This document shows, piece after piece, positions 21,985 through 57,240 of a stretch of 64,000 nt of DNA. Position 1 is the stretch's first letter; every line of letters begins with the position of its first letter. The stretch comes from an uncultured Gammaproteobacteria bacterium. Its GTDB lineage: Bacteria; Patescibacteriota; Patescibacteriia; UBA9934. Position numbers and translations under genes: made by a program. The stretch is taken from positions 3,503 through 67,502 of the forward strand of contig CAZMTL010000001.1 of the NCBI GenBank assembly GCA_964569575.1, given 5' to 3'. The notes under the pieces are model-generated. The model searched no databases and was not told where the DNA came from. It worked only from the letters and a program-made list of their open reading frames with translations.

Positions 21985-22215
21985 AACCGAGGTTCGTTAT
22001 CGATTGACGCTCGACTTTCGCCGAGAGATCTCTCGAGAATGCTCAAGACGAAATATTGCCGCGCTTCGCTCGCAATGACAAGGTCGAAGTGCGCAACATG
22101 TCTCTCGCCGCTAACCACCCCTAGCCCCTCCTTGAAAAGGAGGGGGAAGCGCGTACGAAAAGCGATAGATCCCGGGTCGGAGCCCGGGATGACGAGGATT
22201 TGGCAATGCGCTATA
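21985..22215. repeat. Composite intergenic block of palindromic repeats (families D cgccgagagatctctc, A-variant cccctccttgaaaaggaggggg, and B gatcccgggtcggagcccgggatgacg)
   Basis: Shares about 40-bp blocks with 56920..57195. The ORF-track hit 21973..22233 is a translation of these repeats. Confidence 0.6.
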
Positions 22216-27446: not shown

Positions 27447-28397
27447 ATGTTACTTGATTGGAAACAAGAAAAACGACCTATTATTGCTCTCTCACCCATG
27501 GCAGACATGACCGATTCTTCGTTTTGCCAAATTGTGAAATCGGTGGCGTCACCAATCGTTTTCCGCGAAATGGTTTCGGCGGAAGCGGTTGTGCGCGGAA
27601 ACGAAAAAACTATCGAGATGACCGATATTCACGAAGCGGAACGGCCACTAGTACAGCAGATTTTTGGTGCGCGTCCGAGCACGATGGCAGAAGCTGCGCG
27701 AATTATTGAAGAACAGCATCACCCGGAAGGCATCGATATCAACATGGGTTGTCCGGTGTATAAAATCACTTCAAACTTTAACGGCTCGGCATTGATGAAA
27801 GATCCTGTTACTGCCACAAAAATCGTGCGCGAGATGAAAGCCGCGATCACTGTTCCACTTTCAGTGAAAATTCGTGCTGGATGGTCGCAGTACGATGAAT
27901 GTGTTGAATTTTCCAAACGACTGGAAGATGCCGGAGCGGACTTGATTACCGTTCATGGACGAACAAAAGAACAGGGTTATGCCGGACTTTCGAATAAAGC
28001 GGCTGTCGCCGAAGTGAAGAAAGCCGTTTCTATTCCTGTTTTGTACAACGGTGATGTGTTTACTTGGCAAGATTTTTTTAGCTCACTCGACGTTACCGGG
28101 TGCGATGGAGTTTTGATTGCACGTGGAGCACTTGGGAATCCATGGATTTTCGAACAGATCGAATCGAAGCTTGCAGGCAAGGAACCGCGAGAAATTACAC
28201 TTGCAGAGCGAGTCGATGTCGCGCTGAAGCATTTTGATCTTCATTTACAGCAATACGGACAGGACAAGGTTGCTACGTTCCGCAAGCATCTTTCTTGGTA
28301 CTTTAAAGGACAGCCACATTTTAAACAGTATCGCGAAAAGTTGATGACAGCTCCCGACCGCGCAACTGTGGAGGCGATTTTACGAAGCGTCGTGTAA
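27447..28397 (+). CDS. dus: tRNA-dihydrouridine synthase
   Basis: SPMADMTD, NMGCPV and KIRAGW motifs. Start set at ATG 27447 (ORF track starts at TTG 27438). Confidence 0.8.
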   Translation: MLLDWKQEKRPIIALSPMADMTDSSFCQIVKSVASPIVFREMVSAEAVVRGNEKTIEMTDIHEAERPLVQQIFGARPSTMAEAARIIEEQHHPEGIDINMGCPVYKITSNFNGSALMKDPVTATKIVREMKAAITVPLSVKIRAGWSQYDECVEFSKRLEDAGADLITVHGRTKEQGYAGLSNKAAVAEVKKAVSIPVLYNGDVFTWQDFFSSLDVTGCDGVLIARGALGNPWIFEQIESKLAGKEPREITLAERVDVALKHFDLHLQQYGQDKVATFRKHLSWYFKGQPHFKQYREKLMTAPDRATVEAILRSVV

Positions 28398-30575
28398 GTC
28401 GCTTCGTTTTTTCATAATAGAAGCGTCGAATTGGTAATTTGGCGCGATCTCTGCCCCGTTCACAAATCTTGCATAGAGCGTTGGCTCAACATCTATTACG
28501 TAATCCCCCCAGTCTGATCCATATACCGCCGTTGCGACAGCTTCGTTCGGTATTTTTCGTTTTACTACTTCACCGTTCATTTCTTCGATCGCATACACAC
28601 TTGGGTCGCTTTGAATTTTCATCAATACAACTCCCGCCTTTGGAAGCACCGGCGCGCCTAACGGCAATACCGCAAGCGTCGCGTCCGTAACTGTCTTCAC
28701 CTGTGAAAAATCACTGTAATGCGTGAAGAACGTCTGTTCACTAAAGAACGGGCGACGACCACCTTCTTTTGTAACAAGATAAATTGTGTCGTACGAGTAT
28801 CCACGGATCAAATCACCTGGTTCGACGATCGAGATCGACTCTAGCTCACCCGTTGCGGGACTGATTCCGGTAGACGGCAGGTCGATTTCTGGTGACTCCT
28901 CTTCACTCTCTTCCTCTTCGGGCTGACCAAAGCAGCTTGCTTCGAACGTTGAAAACGAATAGTGCATGACTGACGACTGTACTCCATCTACACTTATAAA
29001 TATTGCGTACAGATCGCTACTTTCTGCGAAAGACCAGGTCGTTTCTGTTTGATCATTAAAGTAAACAACTTGAGCATCTACAAACTCGGGGTTACTACTT
29101 AAAACGACTCGGTTGGCGTTTTCTGCCTGAATCGTAAGCCCAACTTGCATTACGCACTCAGGATTTGATTCAATCACAATAGACATGTTGGACGGCACTT
29201 GCACCGAGCCTCCTCCTTCACTGGAAATATACAACTCTTGTAGGAAAAGAACGTATACGGCGCCACTGTTGAGCGCCCCTCCTCCGTCATCTTCGTAGGC
29301 TCCTGAAATAAGATCAACAACACCATCACCATTAATGTCGCCTCCGGATGCAATTGCATAAGCAAAAAAATCGTCGTTGTCTAACACGGCTTCAAATCCG
29401 CCTTGCGTATCACTAATTTTTGTTTGCGACTTTACGGTTCCATCTGCATTTAAAAATAAGACATAGATCGCTCCACGGTTCGGTCCTCCGTCATCGTCCG
29501 CAAACGTTCCCACGGCAATGTCCATGACTCCATCCTCGTTTGCGTCACCTATTGCTGTTACCGCTGAAAATAAATCGACGTCTTCTAATCCCTCTACCCG
29601 TCCAACAGTGGAGCTGATTTTTTTATGCTCCTTCACCGTTCCGTCAGGATTTAAAAAAAGTAAGAATACCGCTCCTCGCGCATATCCTCCGTCATTATCA
29701 CGACCTGCTCCAACAGCAATGTCTGGTGTACCGTCATTATCGAAATCTCCAATAGATGTGATCGAGGCTCCAAAAATATGCAGATCATGAAGTTGACCCG
29801 CAAAATTTCCGTCAGAATTTCCTATCTTCTGTTCATCCTTTACCGTTCCATCTGTGTTTAGAAATAAGATATAGATTGCACCCATTCTGTCACTTGCAAC
29901 ATCGTCATCTCCCGTTGCGCTTACAGCAATATCTTGTACACCATCACCGTCAACGTCTCCGATTAATGCCGCTGCGATTCCGAAATTATCTTGCGCGCGT
30001 AAAACTGACTGCAATCCCCCTTCGAGCATACTGATTTTTTGCTCGGCCTTTACCGTTCCGTTTGTGTTCATAAACAAAACGTAAACAGCTCCCGTATTCG
30101 AAGCTACGTCATCGTCGCCAATAGCACCAGTCACAATGTCTTCGACGCCATCACCGTCCAAATCTCCGATTCCGGCAATTGAAGACCCAAGTGAATCGTT
30201 GTTTGTTAATTCAGTTTGAAACCCTCCGTTTAATTCGTTGATTTCTTGCTCGGCCTTGACTGTACCGTCAGCATTTAGAAATAGAATATAAACGGCACCT
30301 TTGTGATTCCCTCCGTCATCGTTACTCACAGCTCCAACCGCAATGTCATTTATGCCGTCATCATCTAGATCGCCGATATTAGCAACGGCTCCACCAAATC
30401 CGTAATCCCCTCCAATTCTTTCTATCTTTCCTCCTTCGTCGTTATTGATTAACTGAAAATCGCTCACTCTTCCCGTTGTTTTTGCCGCAAATACCGGAGA
30501 CGTTATTGAGAACAAAATTCCCAATGTTAAAAACGTCAACATCAGATTTTTTTTCTTTGCAATATATTGAATCAT
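28380..30575 (-). CDS. Large secreted protein with about 7 tandem FG-GAP/integrin-alpha-type beta-propeller repeats and a C-terminal domain
   Basis: 731 aa with a signal peptide. The repeat GDLDGDGVEDIV.GA..DD.....GAVYVLF.N.DGTVK recurs about every 58 aa. Confidence 0.7.
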   Translation of the reverse strand: MIQYIAKKKNLMLTFLTLGILFSITSPVFAAKTTGRVSDFQLINNDEGGKIERIGGDYGFGGAVANIGDLDDDGINDIAVGAVSNDDGGNHKGAVYILFLNADGTVKAEQEINELNGGFQTELTNNDSLGSSIAGIGDLDGDGVEDIVTGAIGDDDVASNTGAVYVLFMNTNGTVKAEQKISMLEGGLQSVLRAQDNFGIAAALIGDVDGDGVQDIAVSATGDDDVASDRMGAIYILFLNTDGTVKDEQKIGNSDGNFAGQLHDLHIFGASITSIGDFDNDGTPDIAVGAGRDNDGGYARGAVFLLFLNPDGTVKEHKKISSTVGRVEGLEDVDLFSAVTAIGDANEDGVMDIAVGTFADDDGGPNRGAIYVLFLNADGTVKSQTKISDTQGGFEAVLDNDDFFAYAIASGGDINGDGVVDLISGAYEDDGGGALNSGAVYVLFLQELYISSEGGGSVQVPSNMSIVIESNPECVMQVGLTIQAENANRVVLSSNPEFVDAQVVYFNDQTETTWSFAESSDLYAIFISVDGVQSSVMHYSFSTFEASCFGQPEEEESEEESPEIDLPSTGISPATGELESISIVEPGDLIRGYSYDTIYLVTKEGGRRPFFSEQTFFTHYSDFSQVKTVTDATLAVLPLGAPVLPKAGVVLMKIQSDPSVYAIEEMNGEVVKRKIPNEAVATAVYGSDWGDYVIDVEPTLYARFVNGAEIAPNYQFDASIMKKRSDLHDAS

Positions 30576-38968: not shown

Positions 38969-39967
38969 TTAATAATCCAATCCTTCTCGTGCTGGAACTC
39001 CTGAATAAAAGTAATGACGTTCCAATTTCATTTCGGTAATGATGTGAGCGGCTTCTAGGAAGGCCGGGTGAGGGTTGCGGCCGGTGAGTATAAGTTCGGT
39101 TTCGGGGTGTTTGTTTTTGATAAGATCGAGGATGTCGTCTGCGTTCATCATTCCAAGGGCGCAGGTGGAGTTTACTTCGTCTAGAATGACTAAATTATGT
39201 TCACCGCTCGCGAGCGCTTCTTTTGCGATTTGAAGTCCTCGTGCCGCTTCGGTTTTGTCGGTTTCGTTTATGGAGAAATCAAATCTGCCGGTTACTGGGT
39301 CAATACGGTCGCGCCCGGTTGGTTCGTAGTCGATCAATTCGATTTGGTCGAGCAAGTTACGTTCGTTGTAGTGGGTGTTCCCGCCTTTGTCGAAGTAAAT
39401 AATCTTCACGCGCTTCCCTGCCCCAGCGGCGCGGATTGCTTGGCCTAGAGCTGCGGTCGTTTTTCCTTTTCCGTTTCCGTAAATAAGCTGGACAAGCCCG
39501 TAGCCTTTTTTCCCAAGAATCCGATCGTCGCGACCAGAGATGCGTTCGAATTTTATGTAGGCTTCAACCACGCTGCGGACATATCCTTGCAGGTCTTCGG
39601 GAAGCGGCTGACGTGGATCGAGCCAAATGGATTCACTGTGTTCCCACGAAAGCACGATGTCGCCCGCTGGCATTGGAGCGATGTAGAAATTTTTAATTAC
39701 ACGTTCGTGCGCCATTTCACCAAATCCACTCGCAGCCATTGTGTGAAATAGTTGAGCACGCGATACGTCGATGGCAAGGCCGATTTCTTCCTTCACCTCA
39801 CGCGCAAGAGCTTCGAGAGGTTCTTCACCCAATTCCATCTGCCCACCCGGCAAATCCCAAGCACTTCCGTATTTGTCAGGAGTGGAGCTTTTAAGAAGGA
39901 GAATTTTTCCTTGTTCATTTACAAGAACGGCTTTGTGGGCGATGTAGTGTTTTCGAGAGGGGTTCAT
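38969..39967 (-). CDS. Fusion protein: N-terminal NUDIX hydrolase plus C-terminal ATP:cob(I)alamin adenosyltransferase (CobO/CobA/BtuR family)
   Basis: Nudix box GGQMELGEEPLEALAREVKEEIGL. The C-terminal half has P-loop GNGKGKTTAALG and the CobA-like motifs NLVILDEV, GRNPHPAFLEAAHIITEM. Confidence 0.65.
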   Translation of the reverse strand: MNPSRKHYIAHKAVLVNEQGKILLLKSSTPDKYGSAWDLPGGQMELGEEPLEALAREVKEEIGLAIDVSRAQLFHTMAASGFGEMAHERVIKNFYIAPMPAGDIVLSWEHSESIWLDPRQPLPEDLQGYVRSVVEAYIKFERISGRDDRILGKKGYGLVQLIYGNGKGKTTAALGQAIRAAGAGKRVKIIYFDKGGNTHYNERNLLDQIELIDYEPTGRDRIDPVTGRFDFSINETDKTEAARGLQIAKEALASGEHNLVILDEVNSTCALGMMNADDILDLIKNKHPETELILTGRNPHPAFLEAAHIITEMKLERHYFYSGVPAREGLDY

Positions 39968-39983
39968 ATCGATGATTATTTCT

Positions 39984-40076
39984 GGTCATTGCGAGGAACA
40001 GGGTGACGAAGCAATCTTTCGTCGTGCAATTGAATCGCGAGATTGCTTCGTCGGCTGCGCCTCCTCGCAAGGACGA
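39984..40076. repeat. Palindromic repeat family C (gtcattgcgagga...gacgaagcaatc / gattgcttcgtc...cctcgcaa)
   Basis: Long inverted repeat. A second copy in the same orientation lies at 50226..50287. Confidence 0.65.
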
Positions 40077-40174
40077 TAACAAGTTGACTTTTGGTTGATT
40101 TTAGTATAGAGTAATCGGTCGTTTTGGCAATGTGTTGAACACGAAACTGTGCCCTGCGGGGCGAAGGAGATCAC

Positions 40175-40543
40175 GTGACAAAGACTGCTGCTCCGGAGAT
40201 CAATGCTACTCAAGAGGCAATCAAGCACACGATGACGCATGCGCTGACCAATGGAGGGATCGACGAGTGGAACGAGCTCAGGTACGAGTACTCTCACATC
40301 AAGCTCGAGTTCTGCAACCACGATTTCTCAGGCCTGGACCTCCCCTTCCGGAACCTTTCGGGGTTGAATTTCTTCGGATCCAAGTTCTCAGGAACTGATC
40401 TCGACGGCGCTGATCTCACCGGCTGTACCGGCCTCACTGCTCACCAGCTCGCGCAGGCTCGCAATCTCGAGCATGCGTTGCTCGACCCCAATCGCTACGC
40501 GGATGCGGTGGCGGCGGGGTACAAGCGCGCTAACGAGAAGTGA
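40175..40543 (+). CDS. Pentapeptide-repeat protein (short), encoded by a GC-rich cassette
   Basis: GTG 40175 after GAAGGAG. A(D/N)LxG pentapeptide units. C-terminal tail RYADAVAAGYKRANEK is shared with the next gene. Confidence 0.65.
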   Translation: MTKTAAPEINATQEAIKHTMTHALTNGGIDEWNELRYEYSHIKLEFCNHDFSGLDLPFRNLSGLNFFGSKFSGTDLDGADLTGCTGLTAHQLAQARNLEHALLDPNRYADAVAAGYKRANEK

Positions 40544-40625
40544 ACTCTCTCGAGCGAGCGCGTCAAGGCGCGCTCGCTCGCTGACCCAGGTTTTCGGACC
40601 TGGGTCTTGCTTTTCCAAACCCAGC
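40544..40625 (+). terminator. Twin-hairpin 3' module (gagcgagcgcg..cgcgctcgctc and gacccaggttttcggacctgggtc), directly repeated after each pentapeptide gene
   Basis: Nearly identical copy at 41548..41630. Confidence 0.5.
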
Positions 40626-40725
40626 GAAACCTTGACTTTGTATTAATTTTCGTGCAGAATAATCAGTCGTTTTGGCAATGTGCTGAACGCGTTCACGGCC
40701 TTTCGGGGCAAAGGGGTCAGATACT

Positions 40726-41547
40726 ATGATGAAGGTTCAGATGGTCGCAATGCTGCGCAAGGGACGAATCGAGGAATGGGACGCATGGCGGACGGTGAAT
40801 CCGGGAGTGCGTATCGACCTTTCGATGACTGATCTCTCAGAGGCAAATCTCGAAGGGGTGAATCTGGCATCCGCAAACCTTAAAGGGGTGAATCTTAAAG
40901 GGGCAAACCTGAAGCGAGCGAACTTCTGGAAGGCGGATCTCGCAAGGGCGGATCTTCAGAACGCAAAGCTCTCAGATGCGTATCTCGGATCTGCAAACTT
41001 GTCGGGAGCCGATCTGCGAGAGGCAGATCTGACAGAAGCATATCTCTCACGAGCGAACTGCTGGAAGACGGATCTGCGGGGTGCAAATCTCTCGGACGCA
41101 TATCTCGAACGCACAAACCTCTCAGAAGCAGACCTACGTGGCGCACACCTTCACGCAGCAGTTATCGATGACGCGGATCTGTCGGGAGCGAATCTCGAAA
41201 AGGCCAACTGCGCGGATGCTGATTTCGAGGGCACGCATCTTTCGGGAGCAAACCTTCGTTCAGCGAACCTGTCGCATACAAATCTGTCGGCGACGGATCT
41301 CTCAGGAACGTGTCTCGCGGATGCGAACCTTCAAGATGCTGATCTTGCGGGAGCAGATCTTCGAGGGGCGATTCTGTCGGGAGCAGATCTTCGAGGGGCG
41401 ATTCTCTTGGCAGCCGACCTTTCAGCAGCAGTCCAACTGATCGCTGCCCAGCTTGCGCAAGCTGGAAACCTCGAGGACACCAACCTAGATCCTGACCTCT
41501 ACGCGGATGCGGTGGCGGCAGGGTACAAGCGCGCTGACGAGAAGTGA
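40726..41547 (+). CDS. Pentapeptide-repeat protein (273 aa, about 40 consecutive pentapeptide units), paralog of the upstream gene
   Basis: ANLxxADL repeats throughout. Same C-terminal tail and a conserved about-60-bp 5' leader (aatcagtcgttttggcaatgtg..gaac). Confidence 0.75.
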   Translation: MMKVQMVAMLRKGRIEEWDAWRTVNPGVRIDLSMTDLSEANLEGVNLASANLKGVNLKGANLKRANFWKADLARADLQNAKLSDAYLGSANLSGADLREADLTEAYLSRANCWKTDLRGANLSDAYLERTNLSEADLRGAHLHAAVIDDADLSGANLEKANCADADFEGTHLSGANLRSANLSHTNLSATDLSGTCLADANLQDADLAGADLRGAILSGADLRGAILLAADLSAAVQLIAAQLAQAGNLEDTNLDPDLYADAVAAGYKRADEK

Positions 41548-41655
41548 ACTCTCTCGAGCAAGCGCGTTAAGGCGCGTTTGCTCGCTGACCCAGGTTTTCG
41601 GACCTGGGTCTTGCTTTTGGAGTGGAGTGATTGGTTTTGTGCGTGATGTTATGCA

Positions 41656-41739: not shown

Positions 41740-44700
41740 TTAGCTGCACCCTGATGTTGAACCGCAGTTCAAGCATTTGTAGCAGGCGGCGTTGCGGACC
41801 ATGATGGAACCGCAGGTGTCGCAGGCTGGGGCGTCAGCAGAGTTGTCAAAAGTGTTTGTAAGAGCCGCTTTTGCCTCTACTTGTTCAGCTACTTCTGGCT
41901 TTGCCTCGATTTTCTTCACAGGTTCGCTTTGGCTTGCTTGCGCAGACTGAGAAGGCTGAGGAACGATAGCTTCTTCCACCTCAATTCGATCGTCCAAGTC
42001 TTCTGTGTTCGCAGGTGCTGTGCCGTGGGTCATTTTGTTTTCACCTGTCACTTCCAAGTTGTTCAATCCTACTTTTGATTGATCTTCTGGTGAAAGGAAT
42101 TTGAGCGCCATCCATCGGAAGATGTAGTCGACGATTGATTTTGCCATTCGAATGTTTGGATTATTTGTAAATCCAGATGGTTCGAATCGCTTGTGAACGT
42201 ACTTGTTTACCAAGACTGGCAATGGAACTCCGTACTGCAATCCGATCGATACGGCTGTTGCAAAACTGTCCATCAAACCACTAATCACCGAACCTTCTTT
42301 TGCCATGGTGATAAAGATTTCTCCCGGCTTTCCGTCGTCGTACAATCCAACCGTTAGGTACCCTTTGTGACTCGCGATACTGAATCGGTGCGTAATCGAA
42401 CGTCGTTCGTCGGGCAAGCGTCGTCGTTGTGGAGCGCCAGCGTACGAAATTGTTTTTGTTGGAATCGACATTTGCACCTGTGTCTGTTCCGATAGACCCC
42501 TCCTAGCCTCCCCTTGTGAAGGGGAGGAAGCGCTCGCGAGTGGAGTTGCTTCTTTCTTCACTTCATCTTTCTTCGATGCGTCTTTTTCTTTTGATGTTGT
42601 AAGAGCTTGTTGTCGCTTTGAACCGTCGCGGTAGATCGCGATCGCTTTCAATCCCATCTTCCATCCTTCCATGTATACATGTTCTACGTCTTCTACCGTT
42701 GCTTCTTTTGGCATGTTTACCGTTTTACTAATTGCTCCCGAAATAAACGGTTGCACAGCGGCCATCATACGAACGTGTCCCATGTAGTGGATTGTTCGTG
42801 TTCCATTCTTTGCTTTGAACGCACAGTCGAATACCGACAAGTGTTCTTCGGAAATGTGTGGCGCACCTTCGATGGTGTCGTTTGCGTCGATGAATGCAAT
42901 GATCGCATCAACCTGTTCTTTCGTGTAGCCCAATCGTGCAAGTGCTTCTGGAACGGTTCCGTTGACGATCTTGAGCATACCACCGCCAACGAGCCATTTG
43001 TATTTTACGAGCGCGATGTCTGGTTCCACTCCTGTTGTGTCGCAGTCCATCAAGAATCCAATCGTTCCTGTTGGAGCAAGTACCGAAATTTGCGCGTTGC
43101 GAATTCCGTGCTTCACTCCCCCATCGATCACGTTGTCCCAAGATTTTCGGGCTTCGAACAACAGTTCCGCTGGAACACCGTTTGGATCGATTTCGTAGGC
43201 GGCCTTTCGGTGCATTTGCATTACTTCCATCATTGGTTCGGCGTTCTTTTTGAATCCAGCGAATGGACCAATTTTTTCTGCCGCTTTTGTTGATTGGAAG
43301 TAGCTTTGACCAGATAGCAATGCCATGATCGCTCCTGCCATGTTTCGACCTTCGTCTGAATCGTAGGCAACTCCTCGGCTCATCAAAAGTGCTCCTAGGT
43401 TTGCGAATCCGATTCCAAGCGGTCGGTAATCGTGGCTGTTCTTTTCGATTGCTGGTGTTGGGTAACTAGAATTTCCAACAAGGATTTCCATCGCTGTAAT
43501 CACGACTTCAGCAGCCTTTTTGAATGCTTCAACGTCAAATTCCATCACGCCGTTTACTTCCTTTCGGTACTTCATCAAGTTGAGTGAAGCCAAGTTACAT
43601 GCCGAGTCGTCTAGGAACATGTATTCCGAACACGGGTTCGATCCGTTGATGCGATCGGTGTTTTTACTTGTGTGCCAATTATTGATGGTTGTGTCGTACT
43701 GAATTCCAGGATCTCCACATTCCCATGCCGATTGCGCCATTTCGCGGAACAATTCTTTTGCATCGTATTCAACCGACGGGTTTCCTGTTGTTACTTCCTT
43801 TGTTGTCCATCGCGCGCCGTTTTCCACCGCCTTCATAAATTCGTCGCTTACGCGTACCGAATTGTTTGCGTTTTGGAAGAAGATTGAGCTGTATGCTTCT
43901 CCGTCCATCGAAGAATCGTATCCAGCGTCAACAAGTGCCCATGCCTTCTTTTCTTCTCTTACTTTACAGTGAATGAATTCCAAAATATCTGGGTGATCGA
44001 TATTTAGCATCACCATCTTTGCCGCACGTCGTGTTTTTCCGCCTGACTTTACCGTTCCAGCGAATGCGTCAAATCCTTTCATGAACGAAACTGGTCCGGA
44101 TGATTTGTTGTTCGATCCACCGATAAATTCTTTACTTGAACGGAGTTTTGAGAGGTTTGACCCTGTACCTGATCCGCCCTTGAAAAGCATGCTTTCTGTT
44201 GTGGCAAGTTGCATGATTGAACGCATGTCGTCTTCCACGGCGTTGATGAAGCAGGCTGAACACTGTGGATGTGGTTCTGTTCCTAGGTTGAACCAAACTG
44301 GACTGTTGAATGCTGCGTATTGGTTGATCAAAATGAAAGTCAATTCTTCTTCGAACGTTGTTGCGCTGCGAGCGTCTTGGAAGTATCCATCTTTTCGTCC
44401 CCATTGCGCGATTGTTTGCGCCACGCGGTCGATCAATTGCTTCATCGATGTTTCGCGATCTGCATCGCCTACTTTTCCTCGGAAGTATTTTTGAGCCACG
44501 ATGTTTGTGGCAGTTTGCGACCACGTTTTTGGTGTTTCGATGTTGTTTTGTTCAAAAATGACCGCGTTCTTTTCGTTGGTAATTTTTGCTGTACGCATTT
44601 CCCATTCAATCTTCTTGTACGGGTGAATCCCTTCTTCGGTAAAATATCGGTCGAATACCAATCCCTTTCCGTACTTTGGTTCGGCTGTTGTAGAAGGTGC

Positions 44701-45048
44701 CAACTGCTGACGGAATGAAGAATACTTTTTCGCCACGTGCGTTAAGTTGTTGTCGATCAATGTCATCGAAACAACTTCTCGCACATCGGCACTGCTTGGT
44801 TCGGTGTGACCGTTGTAAATACGGTGCAAGCGATCGCCGACCTGTTCGGTAATTTTGCGGGCGCGGTCTTGCTCTCGCATGCCGGCAATTTCCATCGCCT
44901 TCACGACCGAAGCGTGCAGTTTGTCGTACTGAAATGATTGCGATTCACCATTTCGTTTTTTGATGCTTTTTACAGCAGTCATGTAATCCCACACAATGTC
45001 ACCGACGTTGCCGGTTTTTTGTTGTGTGTTTGTTGCGGACTGGTTCAT
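41740..45048 (-). CDS. nrdJ: Ribonucleotide reductase, monomeric class II (adenosylcobalamin-dependent, NrdJ-like) with N-terminal ATP-cone and C-terminal zinc ribbon
   Basis: 1102 aa. ATP-cone VKSIKKRNGESQSFQYDKL, active-site NPCSEYMFLDDSACNLASLNL, C-terminal CDTCGS...CYKCLNCGS. An in-frame repeat-derived segment SPSQGEARRGL sits in a linker. Confidence 0.8.
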   Translation of the reverse strand: MNQSATNTQQKTGNVGDIVWDYMTAVKSIKKRNGESQSFQYDKLHASVVKAMEIAGMREQDRARKITEQVGDRLHRIYNGHTEPSSADVREVVSMTLIDNNLTHVAKKYSSFRQQLAPSTTAEPKYGKGLVFDRYFTEEGIHPYKKIEWEMRTAKITNEKNAVIFEQNNIETPKTWSQTATNIVAQKYFRGKVGDADRETSMKQLIDRVAQTIAQWGRKDGYFQDARSATTFEEELTFILINQYAAFNSPVWFNLGTEPHPQCSACFINAVEDDMRSIMQLATTESMLFKGGSGTGSNLSKLRSSKEFIGGSNNKSSGPVSFMKGFDAFAGTVKSGGKTRRAAKMVMLNIDHPDILEFIHCKVREEKKAWALVDAGYDSSMDGEAYSSIFFQNANNSVRVSDEFMKAVENGARWTTKEVTTGNPSVEYDAKELFREMAQSAWECGDPGIQYDTTINNWHTSKNTDRINGSNPCSEYMFLDDSACNLASLNLMKYRKEVNGVMEFDVEAFKKAAEVVITAMEILVGNSSYPTPAIEKNSHDYRPLGIGFANLGALLMSRGVAYDSDEGRNMAGAIMALLSGQSYFQSTKAAEKIGPFAGFKKNAEPMMEVMQMHRKAAYEIDPNGVPAELLFEARKSWDNVIDGGVKHGIRNAQISVLAPTGTIGFLMDCDTTGVEPDIALVKYKWLVGGGMLKIVNGTVPEALARLGYTKEQVDAIIAFIDANDTIEGAPHISEEHLSVFDCAFKAKNGTRTIHYMGHVRMMAAVQPFISGAISKTVNMPKEATVEDVEHVYMEGWKMGLKAIAIYRDGSKRQQALTTSKEKDASKKDEVKKEATPLASASSPSQGEARRGLSEQTQVQMSIPTKTISYAGAPQRRRLPDERRSITHRFSIASHKGYLTVGLYDDGKPGEIFITMAKEGSVISGLMDSFATAVSIGLQYGVPLPVLVNKYVHKRFEPSGFTNNPNIRMAKSIVDYIFRWMALKFLSPEDQSKVGLNNLEVTGENKMTHGTAPANTEDLDDRIEVEEAIVPQPSQSAQASQSEPVKKIEAKPEVAEQVEAKAALTNTFDNSADAPACDTCGSIMVRNAACYKCLNCGSTSGCS

Positions 45049-50225: not shown

Positions 50226-50287
50226 TGGTCATTGCGAGGAGTGCTGCGACGAAGCAATCTTTTACTTCGCTGCGCTCGCAATGACGG
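50226..50287. repeat. Palindromic repeat family C copy (ggtcattgcgaggagtgctgcgacgaagcaatc ... ctcgcaatgac)
   Basis: Same orientation as 39984..40076. Lies between dnaK and grpE. Confidence 0.65.
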
Positions 50288-56689: not shown

Positions 56690-57240
56690 TTAATTGTTGT
56701 AAGTATAACACAATTGATTTTTGTAATGCGATGCTCGCCGTCGCGTGTTGTACTTGGATGGTCGTTGGTTGTATTGATGAAGAAAAGTGGATCGCTGTTT
56801 TTCGAGAAGACCCCTCCTAGCCTCCCATTGGTAAGGGGAGGAAGCGCTGCAGGCTCGTGTCCCCCTTACCAAGGGGGACGACAGGGGGTCGCGTGACGCA
56901 TTCGCGTTCGATTATCGCGGAACCTCCCCTCCGTCCTTCGCTAAAGCTTCGGAGGACCCACCCGTAGCCTTGGCGAAGGAGGGGAAGCGCGTTTTGATCT
57001 TCGCCGAGAGATCTCTCCACTTCGCTCGGCTTCGCCTCACTTCGGTCGAGATGGTGATGTTTTAATTATGTTCCTACTACTTAGAGCATCTTTTTTTCTT
57101 ACCATCTCGACCGAACGAAGTGAGCGGAGAGATCTCTCGTGTGCGCTCGAAGCGAAATAAGCGATGGATCCCGGGTCGGGGCCCGGGATGACGGAGATGA
57201 TAGAGGCGCGTCGTGAGTAGGGATTGTTAGATCATTCGAG
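56690..57240. repeat. 550-bp cluster of nested palindromic repeats (families A, D and B plus a large inverted repeat 57030..57135)
   Basis: The family A copy at 56809..56893 is inverted relative to 48188..48270. Family D cgccgagagatctctc occurs twice, 56995-57025 and 57116-57140. Family B is at 57166..57192. Confidence 0.7.

Follow-up and report, generated by a model that had tools for sequence, protein, structure and literature searches.

Tandem pentapeptide-repeat genes with diverged bodies and near-identical ends in a Magasanikbacteria-like genome: probable gene conversion between old paralogues

Introduction

Two genes that encode pentapeptide-repeat proteins (PRPs) lie side by side in a Magasanikbacteria-like genome of the candidate phyla radiation, and the conservation of their non-coding ends greatly exceeds that of their coding bodies, as was correctly noticed in an initial annotation of the 64-kb window (the whole stretch of DNA that was analysed). 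The question that this locus raises is how two neighbouring genes came to have near-identical ends around such different bodies. The initial annotation saw in them a recently duplicated mobile or recombinogenic cassette, whose flanks could be either recombination sites or regulatory RNA structures and whose products might be of the Qnr/MfpA type. In this study, which was based on sequence comparison, promoter and terminator scans, RNA folding and profile searches, we attempted to establish the anatomy of the locus and the age of its parts, and gene conversion emerged as the most likely cause of the near-identical ends.

Two members of a small protein family

ORF1 (40175-40543, + strand) starts with GTG and encodes 122 aa, and ORF2 (40726-41547, + strand) encodes 273 aa with approximately 40 pentapeptide repeats. 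Both contain PF00805, for which the Pfam match of ORF1 passes the gathering threshold (23.7 bits with a cut-off of 20.2) and that of ORF2 reaches 190.8 bits, and the genes are paralogous, which confirms that two PRP genes stand in tandem here. The AF2 model of ORF1 (pLDDT 88.9) has two N-terminal helices followed by a beta-helix and a tail helix at residues 105-113; single-residue strands recur regularly between residues 45 and 85, one per 5 residues, and their arrangement in the secondary-structure string suggests about two coils. Judged by this model, ORF1 would have the right-handed quadrilateral beta-helix fold, and the PDB matches that Foldseek found for it were PRPs without exception.

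The two proteins end in a common C-terminal tail, as had been claimed, which reads YADAVAAGYKRANEK in one gene and YADAVAAGYKRADEK in the other. In both, the tail carries the family motif NLE[HY]A.[LM]DPGR[YF]ADAVAAGY[KR], which is located at the C-terminus after the last coil. A profile built from the 39 C-terminal aa retrieved 14 proteins among 1.84e9 representatives, approximately 12 of which were small PRPs with the tail motif, and DPGR[YF]ADAVAAGYK was found only in these approximately 12 clusters. YADAVAAGYK is thereby the hallmark of a rare family of small PRPs. All three genome loci of this family belong to Patescibacteria and two of them to Magasanikbacteria, and a literature search for PRPs in Patescibacteria found nothing relevant. 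The analysis defines a rare family of small patescibacterial PRPs, for which the helix motif at the C-terminus is distinctive. The homologues of ORF1 share 35-47% identity with it. A full-length search with ORF2 returned generic PRPs only, at no more than 50% identity, and its body is 46% identical to PRPs of approximately 430 aa; its N- and C-caps are family-like.

The relatives at the five readable loci (L001 and L004-L007) are single-copy genes, each with its own TTGACA-type promoter and one terminator. The neighbourhoods of the family's PRP genes vary between genomes and their GC3 is raised. In the genome studied here, the neighbours are housekeeping genes (murE-like, ftsI, NUDIX-CobO, nrdJ, dnaJ/K, grpE and hrcA), and neither a PADLOC match nor a gyrase-linked gene context was found at the locus.

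As regards function, both proteins are putative generic PRP scaffolds. The suggestion that they might be of the Qnr/MfpA type was not supported, as scores were far under the NCBIfam equivalog cut-offs, with ORF2 reaching 72.6 bits of the 240 set for Qnr and 67.3 bits of the 360 set for MfpA, and ORF1 having only an 18-bit match to QnrC. MfpA was the top solved match of the ORF1 model in Foldseek, and the match was weak (E = 1.2e-3, TM ~0.46). Moreover, a protein of 122 aa that is modelled with a beta-helix of about two coils would not have nearly the length that is needed to mimic a DNA segment of gyrase size.

Promoters, leaders and 3' ends

The initial annotation described a leader of approximately 60 bp before each gene. 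The conserved block is real (40084-40143 and 40632-40691, 82% identity over 60 nt), but most of it is promoter. A promoter scan placed the -35 and -10 hexamers both within the conserved 60 nt, and by its sequence each block would be a sigma-70-type promoter (TTGACT-17-TAGAGT/CAGAAT) followed by the initial ~30 nt of 5' UTR, the only part that would be transcribed. The predicted promoter of ORF1 (TTGACT-17 nt-TAGAGT, 40084..40112, + strand) shares its -35 hexamer and the surroundings of the latter with the second copy, and that of ORF2 (TTGACT-17 nt-CAGAAT, 40632..40660, + strand) begins 17 nt downstream of the ORF1 terminator. The leader core that follows, GTAATCGGTCGTTTTGGCAATGTGTTGAACACG in copy 1 (40110..40143, + strand) and at 40658..40691 (+ strand) in copy 2, differs between the copies at 4 of 34 positions, in every case by a transition, which gives the pattern GTCGTTTTGGCAATGTG. 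The 64-kb window contains the core sequence AATCRGTCGTTTTGGCAATGTGYTGAAC in exactly two places, compared to 0.00 expected from 100 shuffles. Copy 1 would cover about -3 to +25 of the transcript, and both genes may be co-regulated through the core. A further conserved box lies by the ribosome-binding site, CGGGGCGAAGGAG at 40157..40169 (+ strand), 5 nt upstream of the GTG start, and CGGGGCAAAGGGG at 40704..40716 (+ strand). The conservation of the 5' region is therefore a mosaic, in which the -35 hexamer, the core and the SD-proximal box are kept and the stretches between them have diverged.

At the 3' side, similarity extends over 176 nt (40439-40614 and 41443-41618, 85% identity) and is strongest between the tail's TAC codon and the end of the T tract (40496..40614 and 41500..41618, + strand), where 113 of 119 nt are identical. 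This homogenised block comprises the last 15 codons and the stop codon, hairpin 1, hairpin 2 and the T tract, and the 96-nt modules within it fold much better than shuffled sequences (z = -6.0 and -4.9), in line with the near-identical modules of two hairpins described before. Hairpin 1 (40551..40580, + strand) has a GC-rich stem of 12-13 bp, CGAGCGAGCGCG...CGCGCTCGCTCG, and no U tract; its second copy (41555..41584, + strand) differs by one compensatory change (G-C to A-U), one G-C to G-U change and one change in the loop. Because there is no T tract, hairpin 1 is not a terminator by itself; it probably acts as a 3' stabiliser or represents a REP-like hairpin. Hairpin 2 with TTGCTTTT follows at 40583..40614 for ORF1 and, identical to it, at 41587..41618 for ORF2 (both + strand; stems 40583-40606 and 41587-41610). 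With a 10-bp stem, a 4-nt loop (UUCG) and TTGCTTTT, it has the sequence of a textbook intrinsic terminator and is predicted to act as one for each gene. Hairpins 1 and 2 were each found in two copies in the 64-kb window (0 expected), a count that covers this part of the source genome, so that further copies elsewhere are possible. The other terminators of the window are single hairpins of the A-tract/stem/T-tract type, among which the twin hairpin is unusual. The window also carries other REP-like families (D5, D8, D11 and D12).

A tentative candidate, hairpin H0, lies within the coding end of ORF1 (40485..40520, + strand) and is predicted in equal register in both copies, which differ by one compensatory and two wobble changes; in our own reading of the relatives' sequences, the family as a whole does not preserve its pairing. 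We also considered a family-wide RNA hairpin in the tail-coding sequence. The third positions of the P and A codons pair in the window copies, L001 and L005 and do not pair in L004 and L007, which is approximately the chance level, and the hairpin was therefore rejected. Readthrough of the TGA stop codon before hairpin 1, with or without selenocysteine, was rejected as well, since the relatives have TAG or TAA as their stop codon in the equivalent position and the extended frame would cross the terminator.

Of the two roles that had been suggested for the flanks, the regulatory one is supported in a plain sense, as they consist of a promoter with the start of a 5' UTR and of a 3' stem-loop with a terminator, and that of recombination sites was not borne out. 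The initial annotation had itself named the lack of such modules at other loci, together with plain terminators as 3' hairpins, as what would speak against a cassette, and this is essentially what was found: there are no further modules in the window or at the five relative loci, the leader core has no exact match in viral contigs, and hairpin 2 is a plain terminator.

Old bodies with young ends

Overall, ORF1 and ORF2 are only 33% identical, and a comparison with the family showed that their duplication was not recent, contrary to what had been proposed. For the last 45 residues of ORF1 before the tail, 10 homologues of other genomes outscore ORF2, which ranks 11th of 13 family members against the ORF1 C-cap. 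Between codons -37 and -17, the amino acid is kept at 13 codons and 7 of these differ synonymously, compared to 1 of 14 in the tail, and the shift at codon -16/-17 is sharp (Fisher p = 0.013). On the other hand, the ending KRA(N/D)EK is common to ORF1 and ORF2 alone among the family members. A C-cap that is nearer to homologues of other genomes, combined with an ending and a 119-nt block that are specific to the pair, indicates old paralogues whose ends were homogenised recently; only the ends are young.

We therefore consider it probable (approximately 0.7) that the locus consists of two old paralogues in separate transcription units, the ends of which were homogenised by gene conversion. Each single-gene unit would begin with a near-consensus sigma-70 promoter and a 5' UTR of approximately 55-65 nt, continue with a coding sequence that closes with the C-terminal helix motif DPxxYADAVAAGYK, and end in a very stable GC-rich stem-loop and a canonical intrinsic terminator. 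Conversion between the adjoining copies would have homogenised the last 15 codons and the 3' UTR recently (~5% divergence), and the promoter and early leader (12-18% divergence) would have been homogenised less recently or be held by selection. In the gene bodies, conversion would not be initiated or, if initiated, not be tolerated. As a consequence, both genes would receive a common transcriptional input and share their 3'-end behaviour: hairpin 2 would end transcription, and hairpin 1 would most likely shield the transcript against 3'-5' exonucleases or be another REP-like hairpin of the genome.

Two observations do not align easily with gene conversion. The mosaic of the 5' region resembles the outcome of purifying selection on individual functional elements more than it does a single conversion tract, and the substitutions in the 3' block hint at selection on RNA structure. 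In the paired columns of H0, H1 and H2, all seven substitutions preserve pairing, two of them by compensatory changes; such a pattern could also be produced by template-switch repair within the hairpins. In a control with 500 shuffles, 124 reached the value seen in the pair, and two sequences give the comparison no statistical power. Moreover, conservation within the 3' block is as high at unpaired as at paired positions, as is expected of a conversion tract.

Alternative explanations

The same observations can be read as the work of selection, with the flanks being dedicated cis-regulatory RNA elements under purifying selection that control both PRP genes jointly. The core would then function as an operator, as a riboregulator or as a regulatory stem-loop at the 5' terminus, and H0-H1-H2 would form a structured 3' UTR or give rise to a small RNA derived from the 3' UTR. 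In addition to the 5' mosaic and the pairing-preserving changes, this is favoured by G-U wobbles in H0/H1/H2 that work only in the RNA of the + strand, by the twin hairpin, and by an alternative 5' hairpin that we read from the fold (UCGUUUUGGCA-AUG-UGYUGAA-C-RCGA), in which two core substitutions keep pairing. However, the leader folds no better than shuffled sequences (z = 0.78 and -0.39 for the two copies) and forms no stable structure, and with Rfam 15 only tRNA passed in the whole window, the best local match reaching 23 bits with a gathering score of 100. The relatives in other genomes conserve neither the leader nor hairpin 1: the leader core and the twin hairpin were not found at the five readable loci, and the aligned upstream regions of seven family loci had a promoter and a ribosome-binding site in common and nothing else. 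The equal conservation of unpaired positions and the lack of power of two copies for covariation also count against it. We consider these elements unlikely to be dedicated regulatory RNAs. It is more doubtful still that the core, together with the 3' module of three hairpins, serves post-transcriptional control and is held by selection, and not by conversion alone, in a PRP pair specific to the candidate phyla radiation, for example, a 5'-terminal stem-loop or operator with a 3' UTR that could give rise to a small RNA or bind a protein. To our knowledge, descriptions of RNA regulation are almost absent for bacteria of the candidate phyla radiation; if selected RNA elements were present here, they would be a new lineage-specific cis-regulatory RNA pair and would add to the few such RNAs that are known from these bacteria, a reading that the present evidence does not require.

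Recombination might also have made use of the conserved ends as handles, so that homologous recombination deletes, amplifies or swaps the PRP bodies between them, which predicts short and long PRP variants at the population level or the capture of a foreign PRP body. Direct repeats of 60 nt (82%) and 119 nt (95%) do bracket the divergent bodies, the ORF2 body is closer to generic long PRPs than to the small family, the family's genes stand in differing neighbourhoods with raised GC3, and ORF2 contains a recent in-frame expansion of a 30-nt repeat (26 nt exact with a 30-nt period, 41342-41401). However, the locus was not seen in any other arrangement: one further contig of the source organism, the only one, is identical to the window over 1835 nt, and an exact-protein look-up for strain variants had neither the NUDIX-CobO protein nor ORF2 on record. 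There is no recombinase nearby, the family-like caps identify ORF2 as a paralogue that has diverged rather than as an insert of foreign origin, and recombination between direct repeats would merely delete a gene without creating a switch. We regard this explanation as very improbable.

The cassette of the initial annotation, integron-type or otherwise mobile with the 3' module as an attC-like site, is effectively refuted, since the imperfect palindrome downstream of each ORF and the tandem of similar units stand against the absence of R'' (RYYYAAC) and R' (GTTRRRY) core sites on both strands of both 3' modules, fully paired stems of hairpins 1 and 2 without extrahelical bases in either copy, an own promoter in each unit, a canonical terminator as hairpin 2, no integrase or transposase within ±15 kb (24 neighbouring proteins scanned), no terminal inverted repeats that join the 5' and 3' blocks, and viral contigs without family relatives or an exact match to the leader core. 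A MITE/IS-type element was rejected for the lack of terminal inverted repeats and of a nearby transposase, and a phage origin on account of the viral contigs. The arrangement is tidy but ordinary, and a mobile cassette is not supported.

Comparison with known systems

Adjacent PRP genes are a known arrangement, an example being the paralogues Np275/Np276 of Nostoc punctiforme (PDB 2J8I and 2J8K). Like these, HetL/All3740 and Alr5209, the proteins described here have tandem A(D/N)LXX repeats, and they share with such cyanobacterial-type PRPs a predicted right-handed quadrilateral beta-helix that is capped at both termini. The best solved relatives of ORF2 are generic cyanobacterial-type PRPs such as Np275/Np276, HetL/All3740 and Alr5209. 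Unlike the Np275/Np276 type, the members found here come from Patescibacteria, have 122-273 aa and carry the family-specific DPGR[YF]ADAVAAGYK. With the topoisomerase-protecting PRPs Qnr, MfpA and AlbG, the pair has the fold class in common.

REP elements and the cry retroregulator of Bacillus thuringiensis are very stable GC-rich hairpins without a U tract that are located at the 3' end of the mRNA or shortly before it, and a rho-independent terminator follows them or is combined with them. The 3' stem-loop with a terminator seen here resembles both the REP elements of E. coli operons and this positive retroregulator; REP elements differ by their many dispersed copies, compared to the two copies of hairpin 1 in 64 kb. 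The likeness to integron cassettes with attC sites is superficial and consists of short ORFs with a palindromic element after each; unlike them, the pair lacks core sites, extrahelical bases and an integrase, and has a promoter and a terminator in every unit.

Tandem paralogues that undergo gene conversion offer a parallel for the history of the locus, as a sharp boundary between near-identical and saturated sequence and an ending that is shared with the neighbour only are found in them as they are here. Even though its importance outside annotation is small, the pair would be a clean case of concerted evolution that acts on the regulatory ends of tandem paralogues as their bodies diverge. This is the reverse of the usual concerted evolution: in this pair, it is the ends and the non-coding flanks that have been homogenised, and not the bodies.

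Results and Discussion

The two pentapeptide-repeat protein (PRP) genes, ORF1 (40175-40543, GTG start, 122 aa) and ORF2 (40726-41547, 273 aa), lie on the forward strand and are tandem paralogues whose regulatory ends have been kept alike, most likely by gene conversion. Both passed the Pfam pentapeptide-repeat threshold (23.7 and 190.8 bits, respectively). The repeats that were described in the initial annotation proved to be real: the 60-nt 5' blocks (40084-40143 and 40632-40691) were 82% identical, the 3' blocks (40439-40614 and 41443-41618) were 85% identical, and the leader core, hairpin 1 and hairpin 2 each occurred exactly twice in the 64-kb window, with none expected from dinucleotide-preserving shuffles. 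The 96-nt 3' modules were far more stably folded than their shuffles (z = -6.0 and -4.9); the leaders were no more stable than theirs (z = 0.78 and -0.39). Within ORF2, an exact 26-nt repeat with a 30-nt period (41342-41401; GADLRGAIL twice) is a recent in-frame repeat expansion, which illustrates how rapidly PRP length can change.

According to the promoter scan, most of the conserved 5' block is a promoter, in which TTGACT is separated by 17 nt from a -10 hexamer that reads TAGAGT in copy 1 and CAGAAT in copy 2. Transcription would cover only some 30 nt of its conserved core (AATCRGTCGTTTTGGCAATGTGYTGAAC...). Downstream of the core, a diverged 16-nt stretch precedes a second conserved box, CGGGGCRAAGG, at the ribosome-binding site. 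An 8-nt spacer separates each stop codon from hairpin 1, a GC-rich stem of 12-13 bp; hairpin 2, identical in both copies, consists of a 10-bp stem and a UUCG loop, after which comes TTGCTTTT. The idea that the 3' hairpins are plain terminators was borne out for hairpin 2, a canonical intrinsic terminator, and not for hairpin 1, which lacks a U tract and probably either stabilises the 3' end or belongs to the REP-like hairpins. The ORF1 terminator lies 17 nt upstream of the start of the ORF2 promoter and, because each gene has its own promoter and terminator, the pair forms two self-contained single-gene transcription units. Leader 1 also contains a good promoter-like site on the reverse strand (40130-40103, TTGCCA-16-TATACT, 10/12 matches) that is directed at the NUDIX-CobO gene; since leader 2 lacks a -10 hexamer at the equivalent position, this site does not account for the core being conserved. 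Both leader cores carry a mini-ORF, ATG TGY TGA (Met-Cys-stop; 40130-40138 and 40678-40686), in which the T/C difference is synonymous; as it has no obvious ribosome-binding site, it is probably a coincidence.

Contrary to the initial view, the pair is not a recent duplication; only its ends are young. Overall, ORF1 and ORF2 share 33% identity, and ten homologues from other genomes outscored ORF2 over the last 45 pre-tail residues of ORF1; their divergence therefore predates the split of those lineages. Between codons -37 and -17, 7 of the 13 codons for the same amino acid differ synonymously, compared with only 1 of 14 between codons -16 and -1 (Fisher p = 0.013), and from codon -16 through the end of the T-tract the copies are identical at 113 of 119 nt. 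Unpaired and paired positions within this 119-nt block are equally conserved, and the KRA(N/D)EK ending is common to ORF1 and ORF2 only. The sharp boundary, uniform identity and pair-specific ending look like a recent gene-conversion tract, probably seeded by the family-conserved tail codons. The 5' block is more diverged than the 3' block and mosaic, so its conservation may owe something to selection acting on the promoter, the ribosome-binding site and a possible operator.

The C-terminal tail itself is a family signature and not a by-product of duplication. P0002, the sole word-index homologue of ORF1 apart from ORF1 itself (43% identity), ends in RYADAVAAGYKPADD, for which it uses different codons. 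Scans with back-translated patterns yielded three genome loci, all from Patescibacteria and two of them from Candidatus Magasanikbacteria, as well as one metagenome locus. A profile built on the final 39 residues matched 14 proteins among 1.84 billion representatives, about 12 of which were small PRPs of 122-226 aa that carry NLE[HY]A.[LM]DPGR[YF]ADAVAAGY[KR]; no members were found in viral contigs. In Magasanikbacteria RIFOXYC2_FULL_40_16 (L006, 3100-3165), an in-frame TAA occupies precisely the position of the Pro codon in the LDPGR motif, and the tail beyond it is still in frame, yet degraded (GRHMDAVAAGYKPR); this homologue is probably a fresh pseudogene or a truncation that removed the tail. 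At all five loci that were compared (L001 and L004-L007), the gene is single-copy, is served by a TTGACA-type promoter of its own and by one terminator, and lies in differing neighbourhoods (folD; groEL-like; lepA/murJ; aspS/asnS). The leader core and an equivalent of hairpin 1 are absent from all five, which makes these flanks specific to the ORF1/ORF2 pair.

Alternatively, the conserved flanks could represent a regulatory RNA, which we consider unlikely. Three helices were named on an alignment of the two 3' modules: H0, which falls within the coding sequence, and H1 and H2, which correspond to the two hairpins. All seven substitutions in their paired columns preserve pairing, two of them being compensatory, a hint of constraint at the RNA level. 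However, two sequences provide no statistical power (124 of the 500 control shuffles reached the observed value), the same pattern can arise from template-switch repair in hairpins, and the H0 pairing is not conserved across the small PRP family, for which reasons this explanation was not adopted in preference to gene conversion. A search of Rfam returned nothing relevant.

The proposal of a mobile, integron-like cassette was rejected: attC core sites are absent from both 3' modules, the H1/H2 stems have no extrahelical bases, no terminal inverted repeats joining the ends were found, and the 24 neighbouring proteins that were scanned are housekeeping (Mur ligase, FtsI, DUF4178, NUDIX-CobO, class II RNR, DnaJ/K, GrpE, HrcA and others), with no integrase or transposase among them. 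In several genomes, the PRP genes have GC and GC3 above the host level: GC3 is 0.72 in ORF1 and 0.54 in ORF2 versus 0.45-0.53 in the neighbours (40175-41547), 0.66 in L001 (4527-4952) versus an overall GC of 0.45 in the rest of the contig, and 0.71 in L005 (2770-3225) versus 0.44. These values would fit either lateral transfer or a codon bias specific to the family. Together with the position varying between genomes, they make it plausible that the gene family has moved laterally in the past; no machinery or recombination site for it was evident.

The pair is flanked by a NUDIX-CobO (ATP:corrinoid adenosyltransferase) fusion (38969-39967, reverse strand) and a B12-dependent class II ribonucleotide reductase, nrdJ (41740-45048, reverse strand), an arrangement that suggests a functional connection (supply of adenosylcobalamin to NrdJ) interrupted by the PRP insertion. 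A composite palindrome of about 100 nt (39980-40079), in the interval separating the start of NUDIX-CobO from the ORF1 promoter, is built from a REP-like unit (GGTCATTGCGAGGA...GACGAAGCAATCT) present as two inverted copies, with a further copy between dnaK and grpE (50226-50262) and a related unit 3' of the PRP gene in L001 (5020-5095). REP-like hairpins of several repeat families (D5, D8, D11) crowd the long intergenic stretches at 22000-22200 and 56800-57200, and similar units lie 3' of the PRP gene in L006 (3250-3310). One D5 copy (AGACCCCTCCTAGCCTCCCCTTGTGAAGGGGAGG..., 42494-42534) is within the nrdJ reading frame, apparently in-frame and in a linker. Elsewhere in the window, a 731-aa FG-GAP repeat protein (28380-30575, reverse strand) contains a repeat of about 207 nt in five diverged copies (29414-30299).

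The AF2 model of ORF1 (pLDDT 88.9) comprises two N-terminal helices, a beta-helix, a C-cap and a tail helix; the strand pattern suggests roughly two coils for the predicted beta-helix, and the tail is a confident helix at residues 105-113. Foldseek matched this model to PRPs only. Membership of the Qnr/MfpA type was not upheld, with ORF2 scoring far below the NCBIfam cut-offs (72.6 bits against 240 for Qnr and 67.3 against 360 for MfpA), and PADLOC gave no match. The nearest solved relatives of ORF2 are generic cyanobacterial-type PRPs and designed derivatives (Np275/276, All3740/HetL; E = 1e-27 to 1e-44), and the Qnr proteins are far more distant (E = 1e-11 to 1e-16).
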